64,000 nucleotides of DNA from an uncultured Candidatus Saccharibacteria bacterium (lineage in GTDB: Bacteria; Patescibacteriota; Minisyncoccia; Phycocordibacterales; SIBU01): contig CAYHDB010000002.1 of assembly GCA_964355335.1 (NCBI GenBank), forward strand, positions 3,192-67,191. The letters run 5' to 3'. The translations under genes and the position numbers were made by a program. The notes under the pieces were generated by a model that did not search any database, was not told the origin of the DNA, and saw only the letters and a program-made list of their open reading frames with translations. Shown here in pieces: positions 3,515 through 32,439 of this stretch (position 1 is the stretch's first letter; each line of letters opens with the position of its first letter).

Positions 3515-3523
3515 TGTGGATAG
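3515..3523. promoter_or_regulatory. DnaA-box-like 9-mer (tgtggatag) upstream of dnaA
   Basis: 8/9 match to TTATCCACA (rc), ~80 nt upstream of the dnaA start. Likely autoregulatory or a second origin lobe. Confidence 0.35.
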
Positions 3524-3530
3524 AGTGTGA

Positions 3531-3620
3531 ACAACTGAATTACACATTACCTGTAACTGAATAACTGAATGACAAGGCCAGGTTTTGTCCCAAAAGTTAT
3601 TCTGTCATTCAGTTGTTTGT
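3531..3620. repeat. ACTGAAT-heptad palindromic element (same architecture as the TACGAA elements, different heptad)
   Basis: Left arm aactgaat/aactgaat/aactgaatga, core ggccaggttttgtcccaaaag, right arm tcattcagttg. A second copy is at 30890-31033. Confidence 0.7.
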
Positions 3621-3641
3621 TATAAGTCATAAGTTTCTTAC

Positions 3642-3776
3642 ATGTCATTCACATACAAACCTAAAAAGAAGAAAAGAGCTAGAACCCACGGTTTTTTGGC
3701 TAGACAAAGAAAACATGGAGGACGAAAGGTCCTTGTTGCCAGGCGCCGTAAAGGACGCAAGAAGTTGGCCGTCTAA
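3642..3776 (+). CDS. rpmH: 50S ribosomal protein L34 (44 aa). Not in the supplied ORF track; found by manual translation.
   Basis: atg tca ttc aca tac aaa cct .. translates to [44 protein letters not shown]. Canonical L34 core (RTHGF..R..GR.VL.RRR.KGR..L) and canonical position before rnpA. Confidence 0.85.
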
Positions 3777-3782
3777 TCTCGC

Positions 3783-3887
3783 TATACGAACATACGAAAG
3801 GGTACAGATATACGAACATATACGAAAAACTTCTTGATCCCTGTTCGTATAATTTCGTATATTTCAGTGACCTTAATTTTCGTATTA
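3783..3887. repeat. TACGAA-heptad palindromic element, copy 2, between rpmH and rnpA. The right arm ends 2 nt before the rnpA ATG.
   Basis: atacgaacatacgaaagggtacagatatacgaacatatacgaaaaa | core cttcttgatccctg | ttcgtataatttcgtatatttc..ttttcgtatt. Confidence 0.85.
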
Positions 3888-3889
3888 CT

Positions 3890-4231
3890 ATGATTCCCTC
3901 CTCTCGAAAGGTAGACAAAACTCTCTTTAAAACCCTGGTCTCTAAGGGTAAATGGGTAAACTCCGACCATTTTAATGGTCGTGTTTTGCTGTTAGGTGGT
4001 AATTATAAATCCAAAATATCAGTAGTCGTGCCAAAGAAGCTCGAAAAGAGCGCTGTAAAACGTAATGTATTAAAACGCCGTTTGTATTCAGTGGTCAGAA
4101 ATTGTCTTGGTCAGATGGTGACAGGCTCGGTTTGTGCGCTATTTGTAAAGAAGGGTTTCAGCACCAAGGAGCTTACCCTCTTAAAAAAGGAGGTCTCGGA
4201 TTTTATGGTAAAAGCGAAGCTGGTTTCCTAG
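3890..4231 (+). CDS. rnpA: Ribonuclease P protein component
   Basis: 113 aa, basic. Motif ..KSAVKRNVLKRRLYSVVRN.. follows the RnpA RNR-like motif. Classic rpmH-rnpA-yidC order. Confidence 0.8.
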   Translation: MIPSSRKVDKTLFKTLVSKGKWVNSDHFNGRVLLLGGNYKSKISVVVPKKLEKSAVKRNVLKRRLYSVVRNCLGQMVTGSVCALFVKKGFSTKELTLLKKEVSDFMVKAKLVS

Positions 4232-4288
4232 GCAATTACCGCACATTTTCTTGTTGAACGACACGCAAAAGTAAGCTATAGTGTCGTC

Positions 4289-5002
4289 ATGATTAGTTCA
4301 GCATTTAACGCTGTCATTTATAACCCTCTCTATAACGGGCTTATTTTTTTGATGGATATCGTGCCGTGGGCGGACGCAGGTGTGTCTGTGATAATCTTCA
4401 CTTTTTTGGTTAAATTGCTCTTGTTCCCTCTTTCCCAGAAGGCTGTACGAACACAATTACGAATGAAGGCGCACGAGGCTGATATGGCGGAGATAAAGGA
4501 ACGTCACAAGAACGATAAGGAGGCCCACGCCAGAGCAATGATGGCATTTTATAAGGAGAAAAATATCAATCCTTTTTCAAGTATTTTTTTGGCGTTCATT
4601 CAGATTCCTATTATTTTAGCCCTATATTATATTTTCTATAGCGGTGGTTTGCCTGTCATAGAAACTAAAATTCTGTATTCTTTTGTCGGTACACCGGAAG
4701 TCTCAATGTTGTTTCTTGGGTTGATCGATATAACGAAAGGAAGCTTGATTTTTGCCATACTCGTAGCCGTCAGTCAGTATTTTCAAGTGAAACTCTCCAT
4801 GCCGGAGATGAAGCCTGCTGTCGCAGGGGGCACATTCAAGGACGATTTTGCCAGAACCCTAAATCTCCAGATGAGATATTTTCTTCCTGTACTTGTTGGT
4901 GTTATTGCGTACAATATTGCCGGAGCAGTTTCCCTTTACTGGATTACGAGTAACCTCTTTGCCATCGGCCAGGAGATTTATGTCCGCAAGACATTTATGT
5001 AA
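4289..5002 (+). CDS. yidC: Membrane protein insertase YidC (short Oxa1-type)
   Basis: 237 aa, five predicted TM segments, conserved YidC core. Follows rnpA. Confidence 0.85.
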   Translation: MISSAFNAVIYNPLYNGLIFLMDIVPWADAGVSVIIFTFLVKLLLFPLSQKAVRTQLRMKAHEADMAEIKERHKNDKEAHARAMMAFYKEKNINPFSSIFLAFIQIPIILALYYIFYSGGLPVIETKILYSFVGTPEVSMLFLGLIDITKGSLIFAILVAVSQYFQVKLSMPEMKPAVAGGTFKDDFARTLNLQMRYFLPVLVGVIAYNIAGAVSLYWITSNLFAIGQEIYVRKTFM

Positions 5003-5011
5003 TTAATATTT

Positions 5012-5482
5012 ATGACCCTAGACCACAATAAAACAAAAGATGTGATCCAAGAGATGCTCAAAAGTATGGGTATTGGTTTTGATACTGTAGAGATAATAAG
5101 TAACCCAGATTCACAGCACACCCGTTTTGCGATAAGAACACCTGAGCCTTCCCTGCTTATTGGGACCAAAGGAGAAAATCTTGGCGCTCTTAATTATCTT
5201 ATTAAAAAAATTGTTACTAAGGCCCTCGCACCCGATACGGAAGTTAAGTTCTTCATCGATGTGAACGACTACCATGAGAGAGCCTTGGAGTCCGTTAAGG
5301 CGAAAGCAAAGGTTATGAGCGAAAGGGCCCGTTCCTTTAAGGTGGATATCGAGATGGAACCTATGACATCTTACGAGAGAATGCTTGTGCATTCGTGCCT
5401 CGAAGGGGTCTCTGACGTCAAAACAGAATCTGTCGGCGAGGGGCCTCTTAGACGTGTTGTTATTAAGTACCTTGCCTCATAA
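5012..5482 (+). CDS. jag: Jag/KhpB-type RNA-binding protein (KH + R3H)
   Basis: 156 aa. C-terminal R3H-like ..YERMLVHSCLEG.. Position after yidC. Confidence 0.75.
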   Translation: MTLDHNKTKDVIQEMLKSMGIGFDTVEIISNPDSQHTRFAIRTPEPSLLIGTKGENLGALNYLIKKIVTKALAPDTEVKFFIDVNDYHERALESVKAKAKVMSERARSFKVDIEMEPMTSYERMLVHSCLEGVSDVKTESVGEGPLRRVVIKYLAS

Positions 5483-5587
5483 ATACGAAAATACGAAAGG
5501 TACAGATATACGAACATATACGAAAAAGCTTCTTGATTCCTGTTCGTATTATTTCGTATATTTCAGCGACCCCTTTTTCGTATTAAG
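5483..5587. repeat. TACGAA-heptad palindromic element, copy 3. It overlaps the stop codons of the two convergent genes jag and the 5583..6830 ORF.
   Basis: aaatacgaaaatacgaaaggtacagatatacgaacatatacgaaaaa | gcttcttgattcctg | ttcgtattatttcgtatatttc..ttttcgtatta. Core nearly identical to copy 2. Confidence 0.85.
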
Positions 5588-6830
5588 GCTGTAGCCGTAG
5601 GCTCCAAATGTGCGAGTCGTTTTTGTCTGTGAAGAATAGATAGCCTTCATCGGGACTGAGCATAAGGTTCGTGCCGTCAATACTTTTGCCCGACATCTCT
5701 TTAAGTTGTCCGATTATTTTCCCGGTACCGTCGCCTGCGTATATTTTCCAGATATCGTCGGAGAATGACACAACTCCTTGGTACCAGGCGTCAGGGTAAA
5801 TCTCTGTTTGCAAATATGTGGGGACACTACAATAAATCACCTGAGAGTCTTTTGTGCTCCAGACACATTTTTCGGGAAGAGTACCAAGCGAAGTGTCTAG
5901 GGCCTCACCTGTTTTTAGAGAATATATTTTAAGAGACATTCCACCTTGTAAACTTTCTGAATAAAGAACCGACGTGCCGTTTGGTCCTACAAGTGTAGTC
6001 AGGCCCTTAATACCTGATATTGCTCGAGAGAGAGCACCGTTTTTTGTGTTCAGGATAAACATAAATCCAGGCTCGTTTGCTGAGGCTCTAGTGGTCAGGG
6101 ATATCGTCTGGGATGTTGGCCATTGCGGAATCCATTCTCGCAGAGGAGAGTCGAATACACCAGTCTTTTTGCTACCGTCATAATCTGAAATGACACCGGA
6201 GCTTCCGTCAGAGTAATTCAAAAGATAGAATATTTTACTTCTATCCGGGTCGGTCGTCATAGATTTTATGTTCCCCGATAGGAATGAACCTTTGAGCTCC
6301 CCTCCTCCCAACCCATCGGTCGCAGGTGTGAGTTCCGCATAGTATGTTTCGATTCCCGTTGTGCTGTCAGATTTTTCATAACGTGCTACAAGTTTTGTAC
6401 CAGTCTTATTCCAGTAGGCTTCTTGTACCTTCGGAAGTGTAGTGTTCGACAGTCGATTTTCTCCGGAAATGTCAGGACTCACTTCATAAACATTCCCAGT
6501 CCCCTTCTCAAGGAAACGGACAAGCACACTTTGATTTGAAGATGTGGCAAAGGCGACAGAGCCAGCCGAAGGTCTGGTGGACAACTCCTTTAAGAGATAG
6601 GCGTTTTGCGCCGTAGGTTTGTTCTCATTATTTTGTGGAGGTGTCGTGGTTTCGGGAGGTACTGTCGTCGGTGTCGTCCCTGTGTCGCTGTCCGGGAAAA
6701 TGTTTGTACCGCCTGTTGGGGTTGTTCCTCCCGTCTGACCACCGTTGTAGTAGAAATAAAATGCTAAAACACCCGCGATGGCGAGGATTATTACTATGGA
6801 TATTATGATTGTTGCGGTTTTTTTGGACAT
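5583..6830 (-). CDS. Membrane-anchored protein with Thr/Pro-rich linker and beta-propeller-like (TolB/WD40-like) domain
   Basis: N-terminal TM (IIISIVIILAIAGVLAFYFYY), then a TTPTGG low-complexity linker, then a repetitive beta-rich C-terminal region. Confidence 0.5.
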   Translation of the reverse strand: MSKKTATIIISIVIILAIAGVLAFYFYYNGGQTGGTTPTGGTNIFPDSDTGTTPTTVPPETTTPPQNNENKPTAQNAYLLKELSTRPSAGSVAFATSSNQSVLVRFLEKGTGNVYEVSPDISGENRLSNTTLPKVQEAYWNKTGTKLVARYEKSDSTTGIETYYAELTPATDGLGGGELKGSFLSGNIKSMTTDPDRSKIFYLLNYSDGSSGVISDYDGSKKTGVFDSPLREWIPQWPTSQTISLTTRASANEPGFMFILNTKNGALSRAISGIKGLTTLVGPNGTSVLYSESLQGGMSLKIYSLKTGEALDTSLGTLPEKCVWSTKDSQVIYCSVPTYLQTEIYPDAWYQGVVSFSDDIWKIYAGDGTGKIIGQLKEMSGKSIDGTNLMLSPDEGYLFFTDKNDSHIWSLRLQP

Positions 6831-7991
6831 TTATTTGTTTGCTGGATTTGTCGCGGGGTCGTAATTTCTGCAGGTTAAAAGTGTAGGGGCTTCAGCACAC
6901 TGCTTTTGTATTGAGGTGATTATTTCAGTTGCCTTTCTTATCGCGGTCGATGTTTTTGTAGCATCACCTTGAGCCGCTCTAATGGCAGCCTGTTGCTCCT
7001 TGTAGGCCATATCCATAATACCTCTTGCAACATTTGTATTTTTTTTGTCTATATCCGCTTGAACAATGTCGGCTCTCGCTTTCGCCAGTTCAGCTTTTAT
7101 TTTCTCCGCCTGGTCAGGCAGTCCCAAAGCGTTCATTTCCGCAATGTCTTTATTTGAAGTCATATTCAAATGCTCCACTACCGCCAAAACATCCCTCGTG
7201 GAGCCAAGATTTTTTATTGCGTTGGTTTTATCTAGATTTATTCTCGCTTTTGCAGCCACGACGTCCGCCTCAGCAGCTTTTACAAGAAGAGTTTGTTTGG
7301 CTGTGTTTATCGCATCCCTCTCCGCAGTCAGGGTTATTGCTTCTGGACTTGCAGGATCCAGAGTTTTCAATTGATCATTAATCTCCCTAACTTGCACCGC
7401 AGCATCTAACGCCTTACCCTTTGCAATTTTCGCATCAATTACCTCCGGTCTAGCATTTTCAGCATTTAGATCGGCAAGCAGGTCGTCCAACTGCTTTGAG
7501 TAAGTCACATCGTCCGGCTTTTCCAAACGATTCATTTTGGCCTGGTCAGCCGGTTTTCCAAAATATATATCTAGCTCTACAAGTTTTGGATTTATCGTGT
7601 TTAGGATAATGTAAGACACAAGTGCCAGGATTAATCCCCCCAACGCTCTTTCCACGTAGTGTTTTCCCTCTTCCTTGCCGGTGATTGAGTCGGTAGAAAG
7701 GTAGGTGAAACCGCCCCAGACTATGGTGATGAAAGCTAGTACTCCGGCAGCAGCCACACCAAACTTAAATATCCCAGTCATGTAGGTGGAAAGAGTGGCT
7801 TTGCCGGTGGCGGGGTCCACCGTTCCTGGGATTGTGGCAAGGGGTACATATGTAGTGGGAGCCTGTTCAACCAAACCACTTAATGGGGTGGCCGATTGAA
7901 CATTTATTGGCGGAGAGAAAACCAAGAGGAACAACGCAATAATGCTCAGAATAAACGGCAAAGCAAAAATTTTTTTGTATATTGATTTCAT
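6831..7991 (-). CDS. Pilin-like membrane protein (signal peptide, two hydrophobic helices, long coiled-coil tail). Possibly TrbC/VirB2-like.
   Basis: Signal/TM at the N-terminus. Helix-loop-helix IFKFGVAAAGVLAFITIVWGGF / GGLILALVSYIILNTINP as in TrbC/VirB2 pilins. Ala/Lys-rich coiled-coil C-terminus. Cluster context. Confidence 0.35.
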   Translation of the reverse strand: MKSIYKKIFALPFILSIIALFLLVFSPPINVQSATPLSGLVEQAPTTYVPLATIPGTVDPATGKATLSTYMTGIFKFGVAAAGVLAFITIVWGGFTYLSTDSITGKEEGKHYVERALGGLILALVSYIILNTINPKLVELDIYFGKPADQAKMNRLEKPDDVTYSKQLDDLLADLNAENARPEVIDAKIAKGKALDAAVQVREINDQLKTLDPASPEAITLTAERDAINTAKQTLLVKAAEADVVAAKARINLDKTNAIKNLGSTRDVLAVVEHLNMTSNKDIAEMNALGLPDQAEKIKAELAKARADIVQADIDKKNTNVARGIMDMAYKEQQAAIRAAQGDATKTSTAIRKATEIITSIQKQCAEAPTLLTCRNYDPATNPANK

Positions 7992-7993
7992 AT

Positions 7994-9016: not shown

Positions 9017-9019
9017 GTT

Positions 9020-9137
9020 AGATATATTTTAACACAAATAGTATCGATACCAATATACTAATTGTACTAATGATACGAATGGGACCCCGGCTTTGATTAG
9101 TATAATTAGTATTCATTTGTATATTAGCATCGATACC
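9020..9137. repeat. TACTAAT/ATTAGTA-heptad palindromic element (third heptad family, same architecture)
   Basis: agtatcgatacc..atactaattgtactaatgatacgaat | gggaccccggctttg | attagtataattagtattcatttgtatattagcatcgatacc. Outer ends tatcgatacc / catcgatacc are also inverted. Confidence 0.7.
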
Positions 9138-10103
9138 TTATTCTGCGTGACTTGATTCTTCGTTTCCCTTCTTTTTCCGGGCCTCGTATGAGTTGCTAAG
9201 GTCAAGAAGGTTGCTATGCCAACTTAGCCGCTCATCTTCCTCGGCTTCTTCTGGGGATTGATTACGATTGCCCCCTCTGGACTCTGGTGAATTGCCTCCT
9301 CCCCTTTTGCGACCGCCACCTCCGAACAAACTTCCACCACCCTGCCCTCCGCGATTTCCTGGTTTTTTCTCCCCGCCCTTTTTTTTGTCCTTATCATCTC
9401 CTCCCTCCTTCCCTTCACCTTCTTCTTTGGTTTCTTCCGAGTTGTCGTTTTCTGATCCCCCTTCTTTATTCTCTTCCTCTTCATCCTCCTCAGAATCGTC
9501 TCCCCCTTCTTCTTGCTCGCCCTCACCTTGCTTGTTGCTTTCCTCTTCCTGACCACTCTCATTTGATGTTCCTTCCTCCCCTCCTGTTGCCTCAGCTCCT
9601 GCCTCGGCTCCCTCGGCCGCACCTGCACCAGCCTCTGCCGCTTCGGCTCCCGCGATTGCACCCTCGGCCGCTTCGCCTGCCGCAAGTGAGGCGCCACCTG
9701 TTTCAGGCGCCGCAGCCACAGCGGCCGCCGCGATTGCCGCCTCCTCGGCCTTTTTTAGAAGTTTTTCTGCCTTAATAAGTAGAAATACGACAATACCGTC
9801 GAGGAACCATAAAGGTAGAGCATTTAATATTGGGATTGTTTCAAAAATGAAAGTAGCGATGATGCTTCCCCCCATTTTCATACTCTTCATGTTCACCCCG
9901 CGAAGATATAGGTAGGTAGGCCAGGCCATTCCGACAAGAATATCTATAAAGGTGTTGGCGATTATCCCAATCCCTATAAAATCCAGCCCTATTTGTGCAA
10001 GGTCCACCATGAACAATGCACTGATGGCCATCCCCCATTCAGTGTTGGATATTTTTTCTCCTTCGTGGCCCTTCTTTTTTTTCTTTTTTTCTTCGTCCTC
10101 GGC
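9138..10103 (-). CDS. Membrane protein with Ala-rich helix and highly acidic Gly/Glu/Lys-rich low-complexity tail
   Basis: Start assigned to MAEDEEKKKKKKGHEGEK so the gene does not overlap the DUF559 gene. 3-4 TM segments. Long E/G/K-rich tail. An A8-G-A8 homopolymer tract lies in the coding sequence near 10070-10090. Confidence 0.5.
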   Translation of the reverse strand, partial: AEDEEKKKKKKGHEGEKISNTEWGMAISALFMVDLAQIGLDFIGIGIIANTFIDILVGMAWPTYLYLRGVNMKSMKMGGSIIATFIFETIPILNALPLWFLDGIVVFLLIKAEKLLKKAEEAAIAAAAVAAAPETGGASLAAGEAAEGAIAGAEAAEAGAGAAEGAEAGAEATGGEEGTSNESGQEEESNKQGEGEQEEGGDDSEEDEEEENKEGGSENDNSEETKEEGEGKEGGDDKDKKKGGEKKPGNRGGQGGGSLFGGGGRKRGGGNSPESRGGNRNQSPEEAEEDERLSWHSNLLDLSNSYEARKKKGNEESSHAE

Positions 10104-10113
10104 CATAAATTGT

Positions 10114-10461
10114 TTATACCTTAATGAAATCGCGTATTTCTCGCAGTACGCTATCAAGATTATACCTCACATCACTATCGACAAACCTTAGAAACTTAAT
10201 CCCCAGTGATTCTAATGTTCGCTGTCGGTCAGTATCATCATCTATCTTGCTGTCATGACTTATCCCATCTACTTCAATAGCCAAGTTTAATGTCGAGCAA
10301 TAAAAATCAACGACATAATTCCCTATCGGACGTTGACGAAGGAATTGATAGCCAAGTTTCTTTGCTCGCAACTCTTTCCACAGCAAAACTTCTGCCAGAT
10401 TTTCTGCTTTGCGTAGGTTTCGAGCAATCCGCGCCAGTTTTTGATTGTAATGCAACTTCAT
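10114..10461 (-). CDS. DUF559 domain protein (Vsr/very-short-patch-repair-like endonuclease fold), selfish-element-like
   Basis: C-terminal 115 aa of the listed ORF: MKLHYNQKLARIARNLRKAENLAEVLLWKELR..VDFYC..LAIEVDGISH.. (DUF559 signature). AAAGGAGGAAC Shine-Dalgarno 6 nt upstream inside a CCTCCTTTATTAAAGG hairpin. Confidence 0.7.
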   Translation of the reverse strand: MKLHYNQKLARIARNLRKAENLAEVLLWKELRAKKLGYQFLRQRPIGNYVVDFYCSTLNLAIEVDGISHDSKIDDDTDRQRTLESLGIKFLRFVDSDVRYNLDSVLREIRDFIKV

Positions 10462-10589
10462 AAGTTCCTCCTTTATTAAAGGTCGGAGTCCTCGGAGATA
10501 CGTCGGCGAAGGTGGCACATTCCGATGTGACGGAGGATTTAAATCCCTCCCCCTCGCAGACTCAGGTACTCCCTTTAGGAAAGGGAGAA

Positions 10590-12437: not shown

Positions 12438-12440
12438 AGT

Positions 12441-12554
12441 TATTAAAATATACGAACATACGAATTGGTGCGGATATACGAAATAATACGAAAACCGCAG
12501 TGTATTTCGCAAATTTTTCGTATATGTTCGTGTTTTTGTACCATTATTTTCGTA
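12441..12554. repeat. TACGAA-heptad palindromic element, copy 4, lying between the two VirB4 ORFs
   Basis: atatacgaacatacgaattggtgcggatatacgaaataatacgaaaa | ccgcagtgtatttcgcaaa | tttttcgtatatgttcgtgtttttgtaccattattttcgtattag. Confidence 0.85.
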
Positions 12555-13202: not shown

Positions 13203-13300
13203 ACTAATTATACGAACATACGAATTAACGAAAATACGAAATTATACGAAAACCATAGTGGTGCCACAAAAGTTTTCGTATTTGTTCGTGTTTTGCTTCA
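13203..13300. repeat. TACGAA-heptad palindromic element, copy 5
   Basis: attatacgaacatacgaattaacgaaaatacgaaattatacgaaaa | ccatagtggtgccacaaaag | ttttcgtatttgttcgtgtttt. Confidence 0.85.
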
Positions 13301-13660
13301 TTATATCTTTTTTACATTATCAATGCGAACAATACGAATTGGTTTGATAATTTTTTCTCTAAAATTAACCAGATACCCTAAACGCATCTGGGTTTCCTGT
13401 AAGTAATGTTGGACTTGGCGGTAGTCTTCAGGAGTCAGTGCACGTTTCGCTTTCAATTCAAGGATAATTTTCTCTTCAATCAAAAAATCAAGTATATTTC
13501 CACTATTAGATATTGCCAATTCTCTTTTGTATGCAATTTTTCTATTTTTTAGCTTTTCTTCAATTATGTCCGCGTATTGCTTCTCTCTTCCGTACAATCC
13601 CAGTTCTTTATGAGCCTCAAGGAAAATTCCCACTAAATCGTAAGACAAGTTAGGGTATAT
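13301..13660 (-). CDS. GxxExxY-family protein (PD-(D/E)XK-like), small cassette-like gene inside the T4SS-like operon
   Basis: ..LVGIFLEAHKELGLYGREKQYADIIEEKL..GNILDFLIEEKIILELKAKRALTPEDYRQVQHYLQETQMRLGYLVNF.. follows the GxxExxY family pattern (lG.G..E..Y...L...L.....D....iilElK.......h..Q...YL.....gLLiNF). Start uncertain: an ATG inside the repeat, or an internal TTG/GTG. Confidence 0.6.
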   Translation of the reverse strand: MYPNLSYDLVGIFLEAHKELGLYGREKQYADIIEEKLKNRKIAYKRELAISNSGNILDFLIEEKIILELKAKRALTPEDYRQVQHYLQETQMRLGYLVNFREKIIKPIRIVRIDNVKKI

Positions 13661-13669
13661 TACTTTCGA

Positions 13670-13722
13670 GGACACACTTTTCGTATTTGTTCGTATATCC
13701 GCATCCATTCGTATTTTCGTAT
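13670..13722. repeat. TACGAA-heptad element, short copy 6 (ttttcgtatttgttcgtatatccgcatccattcgtattttcgtatc)
   Basis: TTCGTAT units flanking a short core. Lies between the GxxExxY gene and the prgI-like gene. Confidence 0.6.
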
Positions 13723-14166
13723 CTACCTCTTCCCTCCCATCGTCTCGCTCGCTCCAGGACTAATGTTTTCATTGATATCAAGTGACCACGTCAGATCTTT
13801 CAGCTTGCTATCGGAAAGCCTCGGCACGTAGAGAAGTGGGGCGACAATATCTTCGGCTTTTTTCGGAACGATTTTTTTGTCCTGTTTTTTCCAGATGTAG
13901 AGTTTGCTTGAAATCATAAACTTAAAGGCTGATTCAAGCACTCCTATGAATGGCCTGTTGTTCACCTTGTAGAATGCCAACGAAAGACCGAAGGCAACCA
14001 CGGGAAGGATGAGTAGTATGGCCAGGATAAAGGAGATCGGCCCCACATAGGTATAGATGATGAAGGATAGACCTCCAGCACCGGCGACATAGACAAATTG
14101 CTTGATCGTGAGTGATCCGAAAATCTTGTCTTCTACCTCGATAAATTGTGGGACTTGAAATTGCAT
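13723..14166 (-). CDS. PrgI-family protein (VirB3-like small membrane component of Gram-positive-type T4SS)
   Basis: MQFQVPQFIEVEDKIFGSLTIKQFVYVAGAGGLSFIIY.. matches the PrgI N-terminal consensus (..vP.di..edkifg.Lt.rQl.yl..g) followed by a TM hairpin. Lies in the same operon as the VirB4 ATPase, on its upstream side. Confidence 0.65.
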   Translation of the reverse strand: MQFQVPQFIEVEDKIFGSLTIKQFVYVAGAGGLSFIIYTYVGPISFILAILLILPVVAFGLSLAFYKVNNRPFIGVLESAFKFMISSKLYIWKKQDKKIVPKKAEDIVAPLLYVPRLSDSKLKDLTWSLDINENISPGASETMGGKR

Positions 14167-14290
14167 AAATATACGAAAATACGAATTTTACGAAACTACG
14201 AAATAATACGAACACCGCGCTGGTGACACAAAAGTTTTCGTATATGTTCGTATGTCTGTTTCATTTCGTATGTTCGTATGGTTAGTGTAG
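14167..14290. repeat. TACGAA-heptad palindromic element, copy 7
   Basis: aaatatacgaaaatacgaattttacgaaactacgaaataatacgaaca | ccgcgctggtgacacaaaag | ttttcgtatatgttcgtatgtctgtttcatttcgtatgttcgtatgg. Confidence 0.85.
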
Positions 14291-14297
14291 TGCGTGG

Positions 14298-16060: not shown

Positions 16061-16105
16061 ACGACATAATAATTATTACAAAGTAGTGTTTGCACAATGA
16101 ATAAC

Positions 16106-22206: not shown

Positions 22207-22273
22207 ATTTGTGAATTATGAAGTAGTTCAAAAGATTTTTCCTTTTTTGCCCCTTCCCCACTTTTTCTGTAGC

Positions 22274-23260: not shown

Positions 23261-23347
23261 ACAGATATTTGCGCGTTTGTTGATGAATATTATAGCAGAT
23301 GAAACGTCAAAATGTGTCTGTAAAATCGATGTGGTATACTGATTTGT

Positions 23348-24409: not shown

Positions 24410-25172
24410 GAGTTGCGAGAGTTTTCCACTCCTCGAGGGACAAGTTCTCTGCACGTGTATTTTTTTCAATACCGGATTTTCCCATTATTTTTTCGATTTC
24501 CGGAAGTATTTCCTTCAGGTTTGCGGAAAGTTTTTTTCGTTTGTGAGCGAAACCTGTTTTAACAATTGTGAAAAAAACTTCCTCGGTAAACCCATCAAAG
24601 AAGGACTTCGAAATATTTTCGATAGCAAGAATTGCCGAGTCGACTTTTGGAGGTGGCGCAAAACTGCCGGCTTTCACTATGCCGATTATTTTCGGAGAGC
24701 CGTATGCTTTTACAGAAATGGAGAGAATACTTTCTTTCTTGTCGCGGGCAATTATTCTTTCAGCTACCTCCTTCTGAACAAGGATTACCATTCTTGATGG
24801 CTGTTGCTCCGCTTCTAAAAACTTTCTGATAAAAGCACCCGTAATATAATACGGTATGTTCGCTATTACTTTATACTTTGAAAATTGAAAATTGGAAATT
24901 GAAAATTCCAAAATATCATTTTCAATTAAAGCTAATTGTCCGGAGGCAATCTCTCTTGAAAATCTGTTATGCAGATGCGGTATAAGTCGCCGGTCCTTTT
25001 CAATCGCAATTACTTTTGCACCAGCTTTTAATAGAGCCTCCGTAAGCACTCCTTCTCCAGGCCCTGCCTCAAGTACCGTTTCTCCAGGATGGATATCTCC
25101 CGCTTTTACTATGTCAGATATGGCTTTTCCGGAACGGAGAAAGTTTTGCCCGAGTGATCTTTTTTGTATCAT
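24402..25172 (-). CDS. rsmA: 16S rRNA (adenine1518/1519-N6)-dimethyltransferase
   Basis: SLGQNFL motif. SAM-binding VLEAGPGEGVLT. 256 aa. Confidence 0.9.
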   Translation of the reverse strand: MIQKRSLGQNFLRSGKAISDIVKAGDIHPGETVLEAGPGEGVLTEALLKAGAKVIAIEKDRRLIPHLHNRFSREIASGQLALIENDILEFSISNFQFSKYKVIANIPYYITGAFIRKFLEAEQQPSRMVILVQKEVAERIIARDKKESILSISVKAYGSPKIIGIVKAGSFAPPPKVDSAILAIENISKSFFDGFTEEVFFTIVKTGFAHKRKKLSANLKEILPEIEKIMGKSGIEKNTRAENLSLEEWKTLATLR

Positions 25173-25174
25173 AC

Positions 25175-25290
25175 GAAAATTTTATACGAATATACGAAAG
25201 TATACGAAATTAAGAAAATAGTCAGATGGCAGTTTTCGTATTTGTTCGTATATTCGCACAAATTCGTATTTTCGTATACTAATCAAGGTA
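25175..25290. repeat. TACGAA-heptad palindromic element, copy 8, between pcrA and rsmA. Abuts the rsmA start codon.
   Basis: catacgaaaattttatacgaatatacgaaagtatacgaaatt | aagaaaatagtcagatggcag | ttttcgtatttgttcgtatattcgcacaaattcgtattttcgtatac. Confidence 0.85.
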
Positions 25291-27261
25291 GATTATCTTC
25301 CCCCCTCCCGCAAATGGCTCCTCTTTTTCCACCAACTCTTCATCGACGTCGAAGATGAATTCAGAAGGAACGTTCACTTGCTTCGAGCCGTAGATTGTCC
25401 GGACAGAGGCGTAGGAAAGATAAAGTTTCTTTTTAGCGCGTGTCATAGCTACGTAGAAAAGTCTGCGCTCCTCCTCATCGTCACGATTATTATTTTTCGA
25501 CGTTTCGTGTTTTTGGTGAGGGAATAAATCTGCTTCAAGACCGGTGATGAAGACATAACCAAACTCGAGACCCTTCGCTGAGTGAACTGTCATCAGTTTT
25601 ACCGCTTCCTTATTTTTCATCAATTCGTCTTGGTCGCTAGCCAGAGCCGCATCTTCAAGGAACTTCTCGATACCCTCTTCAGGTTTTGCGAACATGTCAT
25701 ATTTGGTGGCATAGGTTACAAGCTCGCGAATATTTTCAAGGCGTTCTTCCTCTTCTGCCCCACCGTTTTTAAAAGATTCTTCCATCCCCGAGCTACGTAA
25801 AATATATTTTACGGTTTGCGACGGTTTTTCTTTGAGAGCCACTTCTTTGATGTTGACCAGAAGTTTTCGGAACTCCAACACTTTTTGTTTTGTCGCTGGA
25901 GGTAGTGTCGACTCTTGGCCAGCGAAGATTTTTAAAATCGTGACTTTTCCCAAACCTCGAGGAGGAACATTTACGATACGCTTCATGTCGGAAAAACTTT
26001 CGGTGTTTAGTGATGCTTTTAGGTATGACATTACATCTTTAATCTCTTTTCTCTCAAAAAACCGAGTACCCAATACTTGGTAAGGGATATTCTCCCGAAG
26101 CATTGCTTCTTCTAATGCTCTTCCTTGGAAATTGGCTCGATATAGGACCGCAATTTCGGAAGGAGAAATCCTCTTGCTTTCTATAAGTTCTTTTGATTTT
26201 AGGGCCACAAAACGGGCTTCGTCGTTTTCATCGTAGGCTTCCATCAGACCGATTTGCTCACCTTCCCCGTTCTTAGTAAAGAGGTTTTTTTCCTTCCGGA
26301 ACTTATTTTTGGTAATTACACGATTAGCCGCGGTCAAAATGGTCTGGGTCGAGCGATAATTTTCCTCCAGAAGTATTATTTTAGCGTCGGGGTAGTCTTT
26401 TTCGAACCCCATGATATTTTTCATGCTCGCTCCTCTCCAGCTATAGATGAGTTGATCGGGATCCCCCACGACACAAATGTTCTTTTCTTTCTCCGCCAGA
26501 TATTTTGCTATCAGGTACTGAACCTTGTTTGTATCTTGATATTCGTCAATGTGAATGTGTGACCAGATGTTTTGATAATGAGTTCGTACTTCCGTGTTGT
26601 CTCGAAGCAGTAATGCTGTTTTCAGAAGAAGGTCATCAAAGTCCAGTGATTTTTCTTTCACAAGCGCATTTTCGTAGTGTTTCCAAACCGAAGCAACCAT
26701 TTTTGGGATATATTCCATATCTGCCTTTGCTTCAAACTCTTCACAGGTCACCGCGTTTCCCTTTTCACGGCTAATCAAGTTTTGTATAAGTCCTGGGTCG
26801 AAGTTCTTTCTGTCGATGCCCTCCATATCCATTGCTTCTTTGATGAATTTCATTGAATCACTCTTGTCCAGGATGGAAAAATGCCTCGGTATGCCGAGTA
26901 ATTGAGAGTTTTCCTTCAGTATATGCACCCCAAGAGCGTGAAAGGTGGAGATGAATGGTGAACCTGTAACAAATGACCGATAACCCATAACTGAATTACT
27001 GAAGGCGGAGACGGGGAAATTAAGAGTTTTATCCTCAGACAATAGCTTCTCCACCCTGTCCCTCATTTCCTTTGCCGCCTTGTTCGTAAAGGTAATGGCT
27101 AGGATTTTTTGTGGAGGAATACCCTCTTTTATCAAATGCAGAATGCGGTGCGTAACGGTCTTAGTCTTTCCCGCTCCGGCACCCGCAATTATCAAAACGG
27201 GCCCCTCTTTTTGGAGCACAGCTTTCTTTTGTTCCTCATTTAAACCGTTTAAGTGGTCCAT
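25279..27261 (-). CDS. pcrA: ATP-dependent DNA helicase PcrA/UvrD family
   Basis: Walker A AGAGAGKT. UvrD motifs (..ILAITFTNKAAKEM.., ..IDEYQDTN..). 660 aa. Confidence 0.9.
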   Translation of the reverse strand: MDHLNGLNEEQKKAVLQKEGPVLIIAGAGAGKTKTVTHRILHLIKEGIPPQKILAITFTNKAAKEMRDRVEKLLSEDKTLNFPVSAFSNSVMGYRSFVTGSPFISTFHALGVHILKENSQLLGIPRHFSILDKSDSMKFIKEAMDMEGIDRKNFDPGLIQNLISREKGNAVTCEEFEAKADMEYIPKMVASVWKHYENALVKEKSLDFDDLLLKTALLLRDNTEVRTHYQNIWSHIHIDEYQDTNKVQYLIAKYLAEKEKNICVVGDPDQLIYSWRGASMKNIMGFEKDYPDAKIILLEENYRSTQTILTAANRVITKNKFRKEKNLFTKNGEGEQIGLMEAYDENDEARFVALKSKELIESKRISPSEIAVLYRANFQGRALEEAMLRENIPYQVLGTRFFERKEIKDVMSYLKASLNTESFSDMKRIVNVPPRGLGKVTILKIFAGQESTLPPATKQKVLEFRKLLVNIKEVALKEKPSQTVKYILRSSGMEESFKNGGAEEEERLENIRELVTYATKYDMFAKPEEGIEKFLEDAALASDQDELMKNKEAVKLMTVHSAKGLEFGYVFITGLEADLFPHQKHETSKNNNRDDEEERRLFYVAMTRAKKKLYLSYASVRTIYGSKQVNVPSEFIFDVDEELVEKEEPFAGGGKIIYLD

Positions 27262-27402
27262 CGCGCAACAACTATATCACGCATATGGAAATTAATAGTT
27301 GTGAATTGAAAATTGATCTTAAAAGCGTAGTTTTTTCTAATCCAATAGGAAAATAATTTTTAACTTTTGTCCAAAATCGTTGTCCACAGCAGGGTGTTGC
27401 GT

Positions 27403-27435
27403 CGATTGACTTTCGACCCCAAAAAGCCTATAGTA
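27403..27435 (+). promoter_or_regulatory. Sigma-70-like promoter (TTGACT-17 nt-TATAGT) for the LysM-M23 gene
   Basis: ttgactttcgaccccaaaaagcctatagtatt. Implies a ~150 nt leader and a real start at 27593. Confidence 0.4.
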
Positions 27436-27592
27436 TTTGGTATATACCGATGACGGTAGTTATTCTGTTTTGGCTCAACAGAGCCATATATTGGCAGACA
27501 GGCGGAATTCGTTAATCAAAATAAGGCTTATTTCGAAAGACTCCATCATACCTTGCGAGCTTAGTTCTAAGAAACGGCTCAACAAGGCCATA

Positions 27593-28606
27593 ATGTCGGT
27601 AATTAAGACCCTTTTGTATACACGGGTCGTTATTGCCTTGATAGTTGTCGGAATGCCGTCTTATGCTAGCGCCGGCATTTTTTCTTTTGTGGCGGATATG
27701 TTTTCAAGTAAATCCGAGACTCAGATGGCTTCTGTCGTTACATCTCAAAATATTACTCTACTCCAGGCTGCGCTTAGCCCCGATCCAAACCCCGCGAAAG
27801 GAGGAGGTGATATCACCGTAGTCGGGGGCGTCGCTCTTTTGCCTGAAAGTGGACCATCTGGCACCATGGTGGATATCGAGGAAGGACATTCGGATATGAT
27901 TAGTATTTATGTCGTACGCCCGGGCGATACCCTGTCCCAAATCGCCAAGATGTTCGGTGTTTCTGTAAATACTATTATGTGGGCGAACAACGTCACTCCT
28001 AAGACTCTTCAACCAGGGAGCCAATTGGTCATCTTGCCGATTTCAGGTATTCAGCATGTTGTAAAATCAGGAGATACTTTGAAGAGCATTGCCACGAAGT
28101 ATAAAGCGGATGCAAAGGAAATTGCTCAGTTTAACAATATTCTTGCAAGCGAGTCTCTCACTGTTGGAACGAACATTATTATCCCGGATGGAGAAGGAGT
28201 GGCAATTGCTCCTACTTCTTCCGCTACTTCCCGATTGCGTGGCTCCGGTGGTCCTGATTTGGATTATTATTATGCCAGTCCGATTGCGCATTACAAAAGG
28301 ACTCAAGGATTGCACGGCTACAACGGAGTTGATCTTGCTGCCTCTGTCGGCACTCCTGTTATGGCCGCTGCTTCCGGTACTGTCATTGTGAGTAAGAATT
28401 ATGGATGGAATGGAGGTTATGGTGAATACATTGTAATTGCTCATAGCAATGGTACTCAAACTTTGTATAGTCACTTAAACGACAACATTACCTACACAGG
28501 TATGCAGGTCTTCCAAGGACAAGTCATTGGTTATGTCGGTTCTACCGGCAAGTCTACCGGTCCGCATCTTCACTTTGAAGTTCGAGGAGCGAAGAATCCT
28601 TTTTAG
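27593..28606 (+). CDS. Secreted M23-family metallopeptidase with two LysM domains
   Basis: Start MSVIKTLLYTRVVIALIVVG (signal). LysM: ..YVVRPGDTLSQIAKMFGVSVNTIMWAN.. and ..HVVKSGDTLKSIATKYKADAKEIAQFN... M23: HxGxD-like ..HGYNGVDLAA.. and ..HLHFEV.. Confidence 0.85.
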   Translation: MSVIKTLLYTRVVIALIVVGMPSYASAGIFSFVADMFSSKSETQMASVVTSQNITLLQAALSPDPNPAKGGGDITVVGGVALLPESGPSGTMVDIEEGHSDMISIYVVRPGDTLSQIAKMFGVSVNTIMWANNVTPKTLQPGSQLVILPISGIQHVVKSGDTLKSIATKYKADAKEIAQFNNILASESLTVGTNIIIPDGEGVAIAPTSSATSRLRGSGGPDLDYYYASPIAHYKRTQGLHGYNGVDLAASVGTPVMAAASGTVIVSKNYGWNGGYGEYIVIAHSNGTQTLYSHLNDNITYTGMQVFQGQVIGYVGSTGKSTGPHLHFEVRGAKNPF

Positions 28607-28674
28607 GAGCATTTGACACCCGCCCGTACCGAACTGTCAGCACGTTCGGGCGGGATTAACCTTTGACCGTTGAC

Positions 28675-28707
28675 ACAAAAAACCGAGCGAAGAGCTCGGT
28701 TTTTTGT
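28675..28707 (+). terminator. Rho-independent terminator after the M23 gene, preceded by a GC-rich hairpin at 28617-28655
   Basis: aaaaaaccgagcgaagagctcggtttttt. The upstream hairpin is cccgcccg(taccgaactgtcagcacgt)tcgggcggg. Confidence 0.7.
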
Positions 28708-28795
28708 TTAACCTTGACTCATTACTAGATTTCACTATAGTTCAAACAGAAATTGGTTTTTAAACAGTCTGTGCTTGAAAGGGGTTGAAAATATT

Positions 28796-29275
28796 GTGAA
28801 TACTAAACGTGTGTGTGGTGAATGCACAATGTGTTGTAAGACGCACGGTGTAATTGAGCTTCAGAAGCCAGCAGGTCAATGGTGTGGTAATTGTAAAATC
28901 GGTAAAGGCTGTAACATCTATGAAGAGCGTCCAGGGTCTTGTCATGATTTTGTATGCGCATGGTTGATGGGATTTGGACTTTCTGAACATTCCCCAAACA
29001 TAACCAAAATTGTCGTAGACTTGAGGGAAATGACCGGTCTAGGTCTAATGTTCTGGTTCTGGGAGGCGAGCGAGGGTACACTGGGCACTCCATTTGTGAG
29101 ACAACAAACACGCCTCAATCTTCAATGCGGCAAAGCTGTCATGCACATCCCAGCTCTTGGCCGTCCCAGACTCTATCTGCCAACAGGAAAGAGCAGTGAA
29201 GATTTTGCTTTCAAGTTTGGCGAGATCGACGAGAAAGATGTAGAGGTAATATCGTTTTCGGAAGAGATGTTTTAA
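28796..29275 (+). CDS. YkgJ-family (CxxCxxCC) putative zinc/iron-chelating protein
   Basis: ..CGECTMCCKTHG..WCGNCKIGKGCNIY.. Cys pattern of UPF0153/YkgJ. GTG start preceded by aaagggg. A TTG start at 28775 is the alternative. Confidence 0.55.
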   Translation: MNTKRVCGECTMCCKTHGVIELQKPAGQWCGNCKIGKGCNIYEERPGSCHDFVCAWLMGFGLSEHSPNITKIVVDLREMTGLGLMFWFWEASEGTLGTPFVRQQTRLNLQCGKAVMHIPALGRPRLYLPTGKSSEDFAFKFGEIDEKDVEVISFSEEMF

Positions 29276-29338
29276 ATCCGCTTAGTAGCTAAATGCGAAC
29301 AGCGGTTTTTTTGTTGGAAAGAAAATGGCCGTGAGTAT

Positions 29339-30892
29339 TTATTGTTCCTGTAAAGTTTTCGGTCTGTACTGAATCGCTTCCGCGATATGGTGTTCGTTTA
29401 TATCTTCCATCCCGTATAAGTCAGCAATGGTCCGCGCGAGTTTGATGACCCTGTGATATGCCCGACCTGATAACCCCAGATGCTCGGCCGAAGCGTTCAA
29501 GACTTTGGTGACCTTGTCATCAAGTTTTACAAGTTTTTCAATGTCGCGGGCATTCATATGACTGTTGCAATCAATATTTCTTTTGGCCTTTTTGAAACGG
29601 TTTATTTGCACATCTCTTGCCCTGATCACCCTCTCTCTAATTTTGTCCGTAGTCTCTGCGCTTCCGGCATCGGAAAGTTTCTTATGCGATATTCTGGGTA
29701 CCTCAATCCAAATATCAATACGGTCGATAATCGGACCGGATATTTTATCTCGATAACGTTTCAATGCTATCGGTGCGCAGATGCATTCCTTTTCTTTCGA
29801 GCCTAGGTTTCCGCACGGACAAGGATTCATTGCAGCTATAAGTGTAAATCCAGCAGGAAACTCTGCTGTACCTTTTGCTCGTGATACAGAGACAGTCCTT
29901 TCTTCCAGGGGTTGCCTAAGTGCGTCAATGGCTCGACGGTCAAACTCTGCAAATTCATCCAGGAAAAGTACACCGTGATGGGCCAATGTTACTTCTCCGG
30001 GTTTTGGTGTGGCACCTCCCCCGACAAGTGAAACATATGATGCTGTGTGGTGAGGAGATCGTATTGGCGGTTCCGATACCATCGCTCCTTTTAGAATACC
30101 CGCCACAGAATGGATGGCAGTAATATCAAGTATTTTTTCAAAAGTTAATGGAGGGAGTATGTGGCAGAATGCTCGGGCTAGCATTGTCTTCCCTGTGCCC
30201 GGCGGTCCAAACATCGCGATGTTGTGACCTCCTGCGGCGGCAATTTCTAGGCCACGCTTAGCTGTTTCTTGTCCCTTGATGTCGGAAAAATCAACATCAT
30301 ATTCCCCCATTAATTTTTCAATGGGTGTTTTTTCTGTAATCGATAACCTAGATTCGATAAGTTCCGAGTTATTTAATGATTCAAGGTGGTCAATTGTTTG
30401 TTTCAAACTTTTCACCCCGTATACCTCTATGCCGTCGATAAGTGACGCCTCCGGCGCGTTTTCTTCCGGCACATAGATTTGGGTGAAGCCTTTATCCTTT
30501 GCGATTCTTGCAAGTGGTAATACCCCGTTTATCTTGCGAAGTTTGCCATCAAGCGAAAGTTCACCAAGAAAAATTTTGTGCTCTGCATCAAAGTCTGTTT
30601 CTTCCGAGGCTTTCAGATACGCAAGAGCGATGGCCAAATCGAAAATCGGACCTTCTTTTTTTACATCAGCCGGAGCAAGTGAAATGGTTATCTTTTGGTT
30701 TTTCTGTTTTGGCGATTTGAAACCGGAGTTTTTTATTGCCGCCGCTACCCTGTCGCGGGATTCCTCTACCCCCTTGTCTGGTAGACCTACTATCGAAAAA
30801 GCATGAAGACCTTTTGAGAGGTCCACTTCAACTGTGATAGGTTGTGCCGAAAGAAGAGTTGTTTGAGCGCTATAGACTTTGGCGAAGCTCAT
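29339..30892 (-). CDS. comM: YifB/ComM-family Mg-chelatase-like AAA+ ATPase
   Basis: Lon-like N-domain. Walker A GPPGTGKT. Sensor motifs. 517 aa, typical of ComM. Confidence 0.85.
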   Translation of the reverse strand: MSFAKVYSAQTTLLSAQPITVEVDLSKGLHAFSIVGLPDKGVEESRDRVAAAIKNSGFKSPKQKNQKITISLAPADVKKEGPIFDLAIALAYLKASEETDFDAEHKIFLGELSLDGKLRKINGVLPLARIAKDKGFTQIYVPEENAPEASLIDGIEVYGVKSLKQTIDHLESLNNSELIESRLSITEKTPIEKLMGEYDVDFSDIKGQETAKRGLEIAAAGGHNIAMFGPPGTGKTMLARAFCHILPPLTFEKILDITAIHSVAGILKGAMVSEPPIRSPHHTASYVSLVGGGATPKPGEVTLAHHGVLFLDEFAEFDRRAIDALRQPLEERTVSVSRAKGTAEFPAGFTLIAAMNPCPCGNLGSKEKECICAPIALKRYRDKISGPIIDRIDIWIEVPRISHKKLSDAGSAETTDKIRERVIRARDVQINRFKKAKRNIDCNSHMNARDIEKLVKLDDKVTKVLNASAEHLGLSGRAYHRVIKLARTIADLYGMEDINEHHIAEAIQYRPKTLQEQ

Positions 30893-31033
30893 GACTAAAT
30901 AACTAATAACTTATAACTGAATGACTGAATAACAAAGAAAATAACAGAAAGACTGACGCAATAACCGTGATTGACTAAATTTGTCGTTTCCTGTGTCATT
31001 CAGTAATGAGTAATTCAGTTATTAGTTATTCTG
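30890..31033. repeat. ACTGAAT-heptad palindromic element, copy 2
   Basis: aactaataacttataactgaatgactgaataacaaag | core aaataacagaaagactgacgcaataaccgtgattgactaaatttgtcgtttcctgt | gtcattcagtaatgagtaattcagttattagttattctgttag. Confidence 0.75.
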
Positions 31034-32436: not shown

Positions 32437-32439
32437 CTG

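Follow-up and report, generated by a model that had tools for sequence, protein, structure and literature searches.

Mirrored tandem arrays at gene junctions of a Paceibacteria genome as probable gene-less members of a superfamily of small insertion elements

Why should one unusual layout, in which tandem copies of a short unit are followed by a core and then by the same units inverted, recur with different units at unrelated gene junctions of a single bacterial genome? The question is raised by three palindromic arrays, here called sites 1 to 3, in a 64,000-nt stretch of contig CAYHDB010000002.1 (G+C content 44%), which is referred to as the window throughout. We consider it probable that all three belong, as members without a gene, to a superfamily of small insertion elements by which gene junctions of this Paceibacteria (candidate phyla radiation) genome have been colonised. 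The nearest DnaA proteins with a named source are from Patescibacteria/Parcubacteria, with Candidatus Taylorbacteria at ~80% identity. Genes of the window are given as crude longest-open-reading-frame (ORF) calls. The window was compared with the syntenic loci L001, L002, L005-L007 and L048 (DnaA 81-84% identical), with ~75 more distant Paceibacteria and, in a wider survey, with ~2.2 Mb of related Patescibacteria loci; the sequences of the relatives are all metagenome-assembled.

Site 1 (3531-3622) is a palindromic array of the ATAACTGAA/ATGACTGAA arm family between the divergent genes dnaA (start 3434, minus strand) and rpmH (start 3642, plus strand). Its left arm (3531-3575) has the unit ACTGAAT at 3534, 3556 and 3564; after a loop (~3576-3590) follows the right arm (3591-3616) with a degenerate ATTCTGT at ~3600 and a perfect ATTCAGT at 3607. 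Site 2 (9038-9137), with TACNAAT arms (TACCAAT, TACTAAT, TACTAAT, TACGAAT), has TACTAAT at 9056 and 9065, TACGAAT at 9074 and ATTAGTA at 9096 and 9105, and is sealed by an outer stem, GGTATCGAT, in which 9041-9051 pairs with 9127-9137. It lies within the 121-nt gap (9017-9137) of two co-directional minus-strand genes, touches the upstream stop codon and ends 21 nt short of the next start. Site 3 (30893-31036) occupies precisely the interval from the stop of a DksA/TraR-type zinc-finger gene (31034-31396, minus strand) to the start of a Mg-chelatase/ComM-like gene (29339-30892, minus strand). Both of its arms are built from outer (A)ATAACT and inner ACTGAAT units, with ATAACT-type units from 30898, ACTGAAT at 30916 and 30924, ATTCAGT at 30998 and 31013, and AGTTAT up to 31030. 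The layout of tandem heptads, core and inverted heptads, as described by a first-pass annotation from the letters of the DNA, is present at all three sites, although the units, 6-8 nt in length, are spaced by 8 nt (TAACTGAA TAACTGAA) or 8-10 nt and not by 7, and the inverted arm of site 1 has just one perfect unit.

This layout is not a product of base composition. A strict scan of the window (at least two tandem exact 6-mers, then at least two tandem reverse complements within 160 nt) gave 9 loci and none in 100 Markov-2 shuffles. A relaxed 7-mer scan, which takes in site 1, gave 13 loci against a shuffle mean of 0.53 (maximum 4; 200 shuffles); both scans rest on exact 6- or 7-mers, and degenerate arms escape them. 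A search for further heptad palindromes, which the annotation had proposed for the full genome, thus found the architecture over-represented within the window. The sites also fold better than dinucleotide shuffles, with z values of −3.2 (DNA) and −3.7 (RNA) for site 1, −6.8 (RNA) for site 2 and −4.2 (DNA) and −5.5 (RNA) for site 3; as DNA, all three range from −3.2 to −4.2. The arrays are present in same-species contigs from two ENA assemblies (L004, L085, L086; 99.7-99.98% identical to the window), and since they recur in these independent assemblies with zero differences within the arrays, they are not assembly artefacts.

The elements are insertions, because the orthologous junctions of close relatives are only 5-8 nt long, are empty or hold a different element. 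In L002, L005 and L006, virB4 and traC are separated by 7-8 nt, and in most distant relatives by no more than ~30 nt. The window has 105 nt here and L007 has 116 nt, with a TACTAAT-type element that is homologous to site 2 of the window but lies at this non-orthologous junction. The rpmH-rnpA gap grows from 5 nt in L001 over 31 nt in L006 and 85 nt in L002 to 113 nt in the window, and the element of L002 carries TACAAA/TTTGTA on both arms. The junction of site 2 measures 44 nt in L002, where it is empty; it lacks arrays in L001 and is occupied by a different TACGAA-type element in L087. In a strict scan of dnaA loci, TACGAA-type palindromes were confined to the close clade of the window. As a separate observation, the rpmH-rnpA gap of L007 has a 178-nt G+C-rich insert (9480-9657) that is unrelated to the array elements.

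The window contains further gene-less elements with the unit ATACGAA, which occurs 76 times; 75 units with the core ACGAA lie inside arrays, and spacings of 8 and 10 nt have equal shares. There are nine such elements of 99-133 bp, seven of them 99-107 bp long, with arms of four units and constant termini (TA-TACGAA...TTCGTA-T(T/A)). Their loops fall into shared subtypes, each of which is seen in both orientations, and two elements, E2 and E3, are 93% identical over 90 nt, loop included, at unrelated junctions. The arms abut stop codons (0-8 nt) and often also start codons (0-22 nt). E1 (107 bp, 674-780) is located downstream of dnaN, where the relatives are empty or different; E2 (100 bp, 3785-3884) between rpmH and rnpA; E3 (99 bp, 5484-5582) between the convergent jag and a gene for 415 amino acids, touching both stop codons; and E4 (104 bp, 12451-12554) between TraC-like and VirB4-like genes. 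E6 (107 bp, 14172-14278) lies upstream of PrgI, E7 (105 bp, 25172-25276) between a UvrD-like helicase gene and ksgA/rsmA, whose start codon it overlaps, E8 (103 bp, 31419-31521) one gene from site 3, and E9 (133 bp, 59245-59377), with G+C-rich hairpins in its loop, downstream of clpP. Half arrays are found as well: four TACGAAT units (59957-59988, minus strand) just upstream of the start of clpP, where the coding strand reads TTCGTA-type units, three TACGAAT units (63397-63421, minus strand) upstream of the start codon of the trigger-factor gene, and one upstream of yebC in L001. A mechanically called ORF of 111 amino acids (431-766, plus strand) runs across E1.

What, then, could be the source of these gene-less copies? 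The window holds one gene-carrying cassette (13203-13722, minus strand), which, read on its sense (minus) strand, consists of four ATACGAA units (13680-13722), a GxxExxY ORF and, at 13203-13300, two units with a short core followed by four TTCGTAT units. The gene (13301-13708, minus strand) encodes a small GxxExxY/PDDEXK_3 nuclease (Pfam PF13366, E 2.7e-20; TIGR04256) and is the sole member of its family in the window; a search of all window ORFs with hidden Markov models (HMMs) for remnants of GxxExxY or PF05635 recovered just this gene. Its first ~15 codons are array sequence, and the true start may lie further in. D74, E84 and K86, which make up a D...ExK motif, are invariant across 40 GxxExxY homologues. 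The predicted model has a PD-(D/E)XK fold (mean predicted local distance difference test score, pLDDT, 86.8), for which a fold search of the PDB returned generic PD-(D/E)XK neighbours only, and a sequence search of the PDB with the GxxExxY profile returned no match. From the invariant residues and the modelled fold, the nuclease is plausibly catalytically active. PDDEXK_3 is entered as 'Unknown' in function in PMC3424549. A scan of 25 window proteins detected no transposase domain; the partner that shares the arms of the gene-less elements is PF13366/TIGR04256.

The right arms of the gene-less ATACGAA copies align with the right arm of this cassette, and the arm of site 2 aligns column by column, and also by BLAST, with arms beside GxxExxY genes (consensus GATACCAATATACTAATTGTACTAATGATACGAAT). 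Moreover, the unit TACTAAT of site 2 is a one-base variant of the dominant TACGAAT, the general form being TACNAAT, and both occur within the same arm of site 2. Judged by sequence, site 2 is thus, like the ATACGAA elements, a version of the GxxExxY cassette that lacks the gene, and TACTAAT is no separate family; the notion of three sequence-unrelated families has to be given up in this respect.

The bracket around the gene is not a peculiarity of the window but recurs at various junctions in dozens of Patescibacteria contigs. The same cassette is present at the same junction in L002, L087 and L091, with a decayed remnant in L001, and homologues at other junctions (RuvA-Fpg; epimerase-epimerase) carry this same bracket in other genomes; the cassettes are consistently co-oriented with their flanking genes. 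A metagenome scan with the alignment of the 40 homologues gave 80 loci, 65 of them with full flanks. In 47 of the 65 (72%), one 6-mer was present in two or more copies upstream, with two or more copies of its complement downstream, a link between GxxExxY and bracket that is a correlation. The same pattern was seen at 3.7% of random positions and, within these loci, at 9.8% of the other genes. The 6-mer was nearly always TACGAA, ACGAAT, TACTAA or TACAAA, and with the generalised unit TACNAA 50 of 63 loci qualified. The orientation of the arms was strict, with 3.4 forward and 0.35 reverse units upstream and 4.5 and 0.38, respectively, downstream, and the variable base of TACNAA co-varied between the arms (rho 0.59, p 7e-6). 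The TACNAAT unit is kept across GxxExxY proteins that are just 55-80% identical, and the spacers between the units are not complementary. Since the units are kept while the spacers cannot pair, sequence recognition is favoured over pairing alone: the pattern points to sequence-specific recognition and not to a hairpin as such. The earlier view that the layout reflects a common mechanism of origin or a common structure rather than one specific binding sequence is, as worded, at odds with this.

Units and cargoes other than these are found in the same bracket. In the ~2.2 Mb of Patescibacteria loci, tandem units, a loop or small ORF and inverted tandem units occurred with more than 15 different units, and the claim that one layout is realised with different units holds both at the three sites and for these units beyond the window. 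A local HMM search of the Paceibacteria loci identified 18 genes of PF05635, the 23S-rRNA-intervening-sequence protein, and 15 of the 18 lie inside mirror arrays, each with a unit of its own (TAAAGTT, TAGTTTT, ATGAATT, TAGGGTT, GCTTAAG, CAAAATG and others). PF05635 cassettes are located in the dnaA-dnaN gap of two genomes (L057, 3386-3782; L067, 11333-11757) and just upstream of PrgI in at least five (L042, L051, L124, L014, L167); these two junctions appear to be insertion hot spots. Outside the Patescibacteria, GxxExxY genes on plasmids of Bacteroides and Bernardetia (Bacteroidota, n=2) are bracketed by CACAGAGG / CCTCTGTG arrays. A tblastn search of plasmids with GxxExxY gave nothing at E 1e-5 and five genes at E 5, two of which had array brackets, one a single inverted repeat, one direct repeats and one nothing clear. 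A scan of viral contigs for the TACNAAT arm module gave 13 matches, all in contigs of very high A+T content that mostly belong to giant-virus bins, and none had a GxxExxY gene close by; we judged them irrelevant.

Sites 1 and 3 are different in sequence. Their arms align with each other and with the element upstream of dnaA in L001 (consensus ATAACTGAATGACTGAATAAC) and, on this alignment, constitute a second arm family (ATAACTGAATGACTGAAT). The ACTGAAT family comprises three copies, two in the window and one in L001; BLAST found no further homologues of sites 1 and 3 in the related loci (~2.2 Mb), and a gene-in-loop scan together with BLAST of both sites found no cargo gene for ACTGAAT/ATAACT arms among 180 loci. 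An unrelated contig, L168, has three gene-less heptad palindromes of ATAACT type. The heptamer TAACTGA is present at both sites, as TAACTGAATAACTGAA at 3554-3569 and TAACTGAATGACTGAA at 30914-30929. A scan of IMG/VR viral contigs for TAACTGAATRACTGAAT yielded direct octamer arrays without palindromes and without link to the window. Among these unrelated contigs, L188, L193, L195, L198, L200, L204, L206 and L209 carry direct arrays of 4-7 TAACTGAA octamers, which in L193, L195, L198 and L200 grade into related AACCTGAA or AACTTGAA units.

How could such elements spread? Each element has two arms, each of 2-5 tandem copies of a 6-8-nt unit, mirrored around a short loop. In the mechanism that we propose, these copies would act as several recognition sites for the protein that the cassette encodes, which in the case of TACNAAT would be the GxxExxY nuclease. 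Nicking or cutting by this protein may lead to copying into new junctions or to recombination between copies. The gene-less copies would then be to the gene-carrying cassettes what miniature inverted-repeat transposable elements (MITEs) are to autonomous transposons, and would be mobilised or recombined in trans; we favour such a mechanism at the level of DNA. Mirror symmetry and A+T-rich ends would make an insertion tolerable either way round. Insertion beside start codons would be tolerable because the host hardly uses Shine-Dalgarno sites: a Shine-Dalgarno-like motif precedes just 5 of the 57 window genes, the upstream regions are A+T-rich, and many gene starts have a TATAAT-like hexamer within 10 nt upstream. 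It is tempting to extend this to a cross-phylum class of selfish cassettes, in which GxxExxY or S23p/Avd-like ORFs are bracketed by mirror arrays, the unit co-evolves with the cargo, insertion takes place at operon junctions and, in some candidate-phyla bacteria, gene-less MITE-like swarms are mobilised by a nuclease that is not a known transposase; this extension is tentative, and we put its chances somewhat below even. The class is apparently undescribed: in the literature searched, which left most subscription journals outside, there was no description of TACNAAT or TACGAAT/ATACGAA arrays, nor of GxxExxY or PF05635 genes bracketed by arrays, and GxxExxY is seldom mentioned there.

The elements are, first of all, no part of the replication origin, an option that had been raised for site 1 (a bipartite origin or a DNA-unwinding element). 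Site 1 lies in the dnaA-rpmH gap, and a single DnaA box, CTATCCACA (3515-3523), is only 8 nt away. This box is part of the dnaA promoter block (3455-3523, minus strand; −10 TATAAT at 3455-3460, −35 ending at 3482), which adjoins site 1 outside the element and is kept in L001, L002, L004, L006 and L007 and less clear in L005 and L048. In contrast, no two close relatives agree in the segment between this block and the start of rpmH. Where the window has ACTGAAT arrays, L001 has an inverted repeat of ACTGAAT, L002 has GAACATG arrays, L007 has a palindrome of another kind and L006 has nothing. The segment is thus variable or absent in these four relatives, as it is in L005, and unrelated sequence or nothing takes the place of site 1 in relatives whose DnaA proteins are 81-84% identical. 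Four of the five DnaA boxes near dnaA cluster instead at 1920-2067, outside the elements; this cluster is likely the oriC core and lies in the dnaN-dnaA gap (dnaN 788-1885 and dnaA 2091-3434, both minus strand), which has a steady length of 199-221 nt in all close relatives. Variability of the one segment and clustering of the boxes in the other, therefore, speak against a second DnaA-box region or an unwinding element at site 1, all the more as the same type of element is found at site 3, distant from any origin feature, and such a function is highly improbable. The annotation's own fallback, that the copy near dnaA is simply another junction element, is the correct reading. Chance is even less of an explanation: intergenic DNA is A+T-rich and short units can recur in it, but 9 versus 0 and 13 versus 0.5 loci in the shuffle controls, fold z values from −3 to −7 and homologous arms in other genomes leave coincidental low-complexity sequence a negligible probability.

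Two further explanations deserve more attention. The arms may act in RNA, where they would pair once transcribed and form a stem that RNase III cuts, or bring stop and start codons together, as a device for processing, stability or coupling. Both cargo families are known from 23S rRNA intervening sequences, in which RNase III cuts a stem whose loop contains the ORF (PMC4990558), and the bracket common to two unrelated cargo families keeps this explanation alive. The cassettes are always in the orientation of the flanking genes, the arms abut stop and often start codons as described above, the RNA folds of all sites are far better than those of shuffles, and units co-vary between arms, as also in the rpmH-rnpA element of L002. 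The sense strand, however, folds no more stably than the antisense strand (12 versus 11 elements, p 0.41), the non-complementary spacers break the stems every 7 bp, and elements also lie between convergent (E3) and divergent (site 1) genes. Moreover, a role in RNA gives no account of near-identical copies at unrelated junctions, and relatives do well with gaps of 5-8 nt; we thus regard it as unlikely. More doubtful still are arrays of operators or translational-control sites for a host regulator, comparable to the heptad operators of ribbon-helix-helix repressors or to the role proposed for TAACTGA repeats ahead of start codons in Beggiatoaceae, with the adjacent genes as its regulon. Half arrays, that is, the start-proximal arm alone, upstream of clpP, the trigger-factor gene and yebC would suit such sites, as would a host without Shine-Dalgarno sites at most genes, units that are kept while spacers are not, the occurrence of TAACTGA as a published heptamer (PMC4679880) and the arrays of 4-7 TAACTGAA copies in unrelated viral contigs. 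But the published repeats are contiguous and forward at the start, whereas here the start-proximal arm is reversed and the spacing is 8 nt. The neighbours (rnpA, ksgA, uvrD-like, type IV secretion system-like, clpP, dksA-like) share no theme, contrary to the association with particular gene classes that had been considered; the elements are missing at orthologous junctions of close relatives; E3 lies between convergent stop codons; and a tight link to a cargo gene is unexpected for a host operator. Three simpler candidates were rejected: intrinsic terminators (there is no T tract and no terminator-like site in 3380-3900, which covers site 1 and E2, while canonical terminators are found elsewhere, for instance at 34960-35005 and 45465-45499), promoter arrays (a sigma-70-type scan of 3380-3900 only gave two weak matches in the right arm of E2, not clearly above shuffles) and TIGR-Tas guide arrays (the units here are identical and not spacer-bearing).

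Insertion elements of a common superfamily are, in our opinion, the best explanation, but several points weigh against it. An act of movement was not observed, and the contigs at strain level have no polymorphism inside the arrays. A target-site duplication could not be defined: with TA-rich termini and a unit that starts with TA, a duplication of TA or TAA would look the same as the unit itself. The cassette at the PrgI-TraC junction is vertically inherited in several relatives and is decaying in place in L001; at least some of the pattern thus reflects old insertions that have since decayed and not ongoing mobility. A PD-(D/E)XK nuclease of ~120 amino acids is no recognised transposase, and the second cargo family, PF05635, a four-helix bundle, is not a nuclease at all. 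That two unrelated cargoes share one bracket is an argument that the arms may have a role other than cargo-specific recognition. For sites 1 and 3, finally, the 2.2 Mb contain no cargo-bearing relative, and their membership is argued solely from architecture, position and variability.

Comparison with known systems places the elements between several of them. Like MITEs (e.g. Correia, Nezha), they are ~100 bp long, multi-copy and intergenic, have inverted arms, as found at all three sites and in E1-E9, are present or absent between relatives and have a gene-carrying relative with the same arms. Unlike in MITEs, the arms are tandem arrays of a 7-nt unit and not a single terminal inverted repeat, the partner encodes a PD-(D/E)XK protein of ~120 amino acids and not a DDE transposase; as to a target-site duplication, the termini are ambiguous, as described above. 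Repetitive extragenic palindromic (REP) units are imperfect palindromes of 20-40 nt with a conserved GTAG/CTAC head, and the REP-associated tyrosine transposase (RAYT) is an HUH Y1 (IS200/IS605-like) enzyme whose gene is flanked by REPs. The many short extragenic palindromes of the window, and the one small nuclease-type gene with inverted copies of these repeats on its two sides, resemble REPs, their bacterial interspersed mosaic elements (BIMEs) and RAYT. However, the GTAG/CTAC head is missing here, the arms are tandem arrays (ATACGAA, TACNAAT, TAACTGAA), and the gene product is of PD-(D/E)XK and not of HUH Y1 type. Free-standing homing endonuclease genes, such as seg and mob of phage T4, are likewise small nuclease ORFs between co-directional conserved genes at variable sites, but lack inverted-array brackets and numerous gene-less palindromes. 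The patch of mostly third-position single-nucleotide polymorphisms (SNPs) beside the cassette also resembles the co-conversion tract of such genes. A further comparison is with the heptad operator arrays of the omega repressor of inc18 plasmids. Those operators, too, have 7-nt units in direct and inverted runs that are read by a small multimeric protein, but they are contiguous, bound by a ribbon-helix-helix protein at few plasmid promoters, and neither dispersed nor insertional.

Intervening sequences of 23S rRNA sit in helix 25 or 45. In Coxiella and Leptospira, their terminal inverted repeats form a stem that is cut by RNase III, with an ORF in the loop (PMC4990558). A small ORF in the loop of a stem, PF05635 in 18 cassettes of the related loci and a sporadic, selfish-looking distribution are common features; the elements described here differ in their location between protein-coding genes, their tandem-array arms and their numerous gene-less copies. 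Complementary termini together with an S23p ORF were found in the PF05635 cassettes of the related loci, while the cassette of the window carries GxxExxY instead. The heptamer TAACTGA, finally, is an abundant intergenic direct repeat in Beggiatoaceae, Cyanobacteria and Bacteroidetes, for which a role in translational control was proposed; the published repeats are contiguous 7-nt units that read forward beside the start codon, with one inverted case in 170 sets (MacGregor 2015, PMC4679880). Sites 1 and 3 have the same heptamer in intergenic regions near starts, with stops in all three forward frames and in a host with few Shine-Dalgarno sites. Unlike the published repeats, they have two perfect units at 8-nt spacing, an inverted partner arm and a start-proximal arm that is reversed. 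In sum, the elements resemble MITEs or REPs in their behaviour and intervening sequences in their construction, yet depart from each in a defining feature.

If the link between cargo and arrays holds, it would give a first functional context to the widespread hypothetical families GxxExxY/PDDEXK_3 and 23S-rRNA-intervening-sequence protein, and would link the rRNA intervening sequences with a wider class of elements that are at home in protein-coding operons as well. It would also add a type of mobile element to the candidate-phyla bacteria, whose tiny genomes are usually thought to be repeat-poor. The tandem-unit arms offer a searchable signature and a protein-DNA (or protein-RNA) recognition code that is testable because each cassette lineage carries its own unit. 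For annotation, the starts of ORFs that run into arrays, such as the N terminus of the GxxExxY protein and the ORF at 431-766, are unreliable, and the palindrome upstream of dnaA should not be taken for an origin structure.

A number of other features of the window and its relatives should be mentioned. Divergent from dnaN and dnaA are rpmH (3642-3776, plus strand), rnpA, a short yidC and jag; the PrgI/TraC-like/VirB4-like cluster comes after the jag side. L085 and L086 each differ from the window at 28 positions in total, of which ~26 and ~14, respectively, cluster at 13750-13956, in the 3' half of PrgI beside the cassette, mostly 3 nt apart; elsewhere the two contigs are ~99.9% identical to the window, and the patch looks like a recombination or co-conversion tract. 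Between the VirB4-like gene and the next gene lies a gene for a small DUF559/Vsr-like endonuclease (10114-10461, minus strand); at this junction, L002 has a GGAACATG/CATGTTCC array palindrome instead. A scan of the window with Rfam 15 gave four tRNAs only at gathering score, with no rRNA and no RNA family matching the arrays. Two long intergenic gaps, 32437-32706 and 56737-56957, have very stable folds (−117 and −83 kcal/mol) without a match to any Rfam family above the gathering score, and may encode structured RNAs that lack annotation. Many intergenic gaps (270-360, 10468-10589, 49265-49305, 60690-60721, 62310-62354) contain small G+C-rich palindromes of the form CCTCCTTT...AAAGGAGG or CTCCCTTT...AAAGGGAG, which seem to make up a dispersed hairpin family of their own. 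The coding sequence of ksgA/rsmA, a full-length Pfam match, contains four tandem TTGAAAA heptads followed by one TTTTCAA (24878-24935). The 291-nt gap at 57231-57521 contains a canonical terminator hairpin, and across it an ATTCTTA-type heptad array (57487-57520) pairs with 57240-57258; the arm resembles the arms of the PF05635 cassette of L124, and the region may be a decayed cassette.

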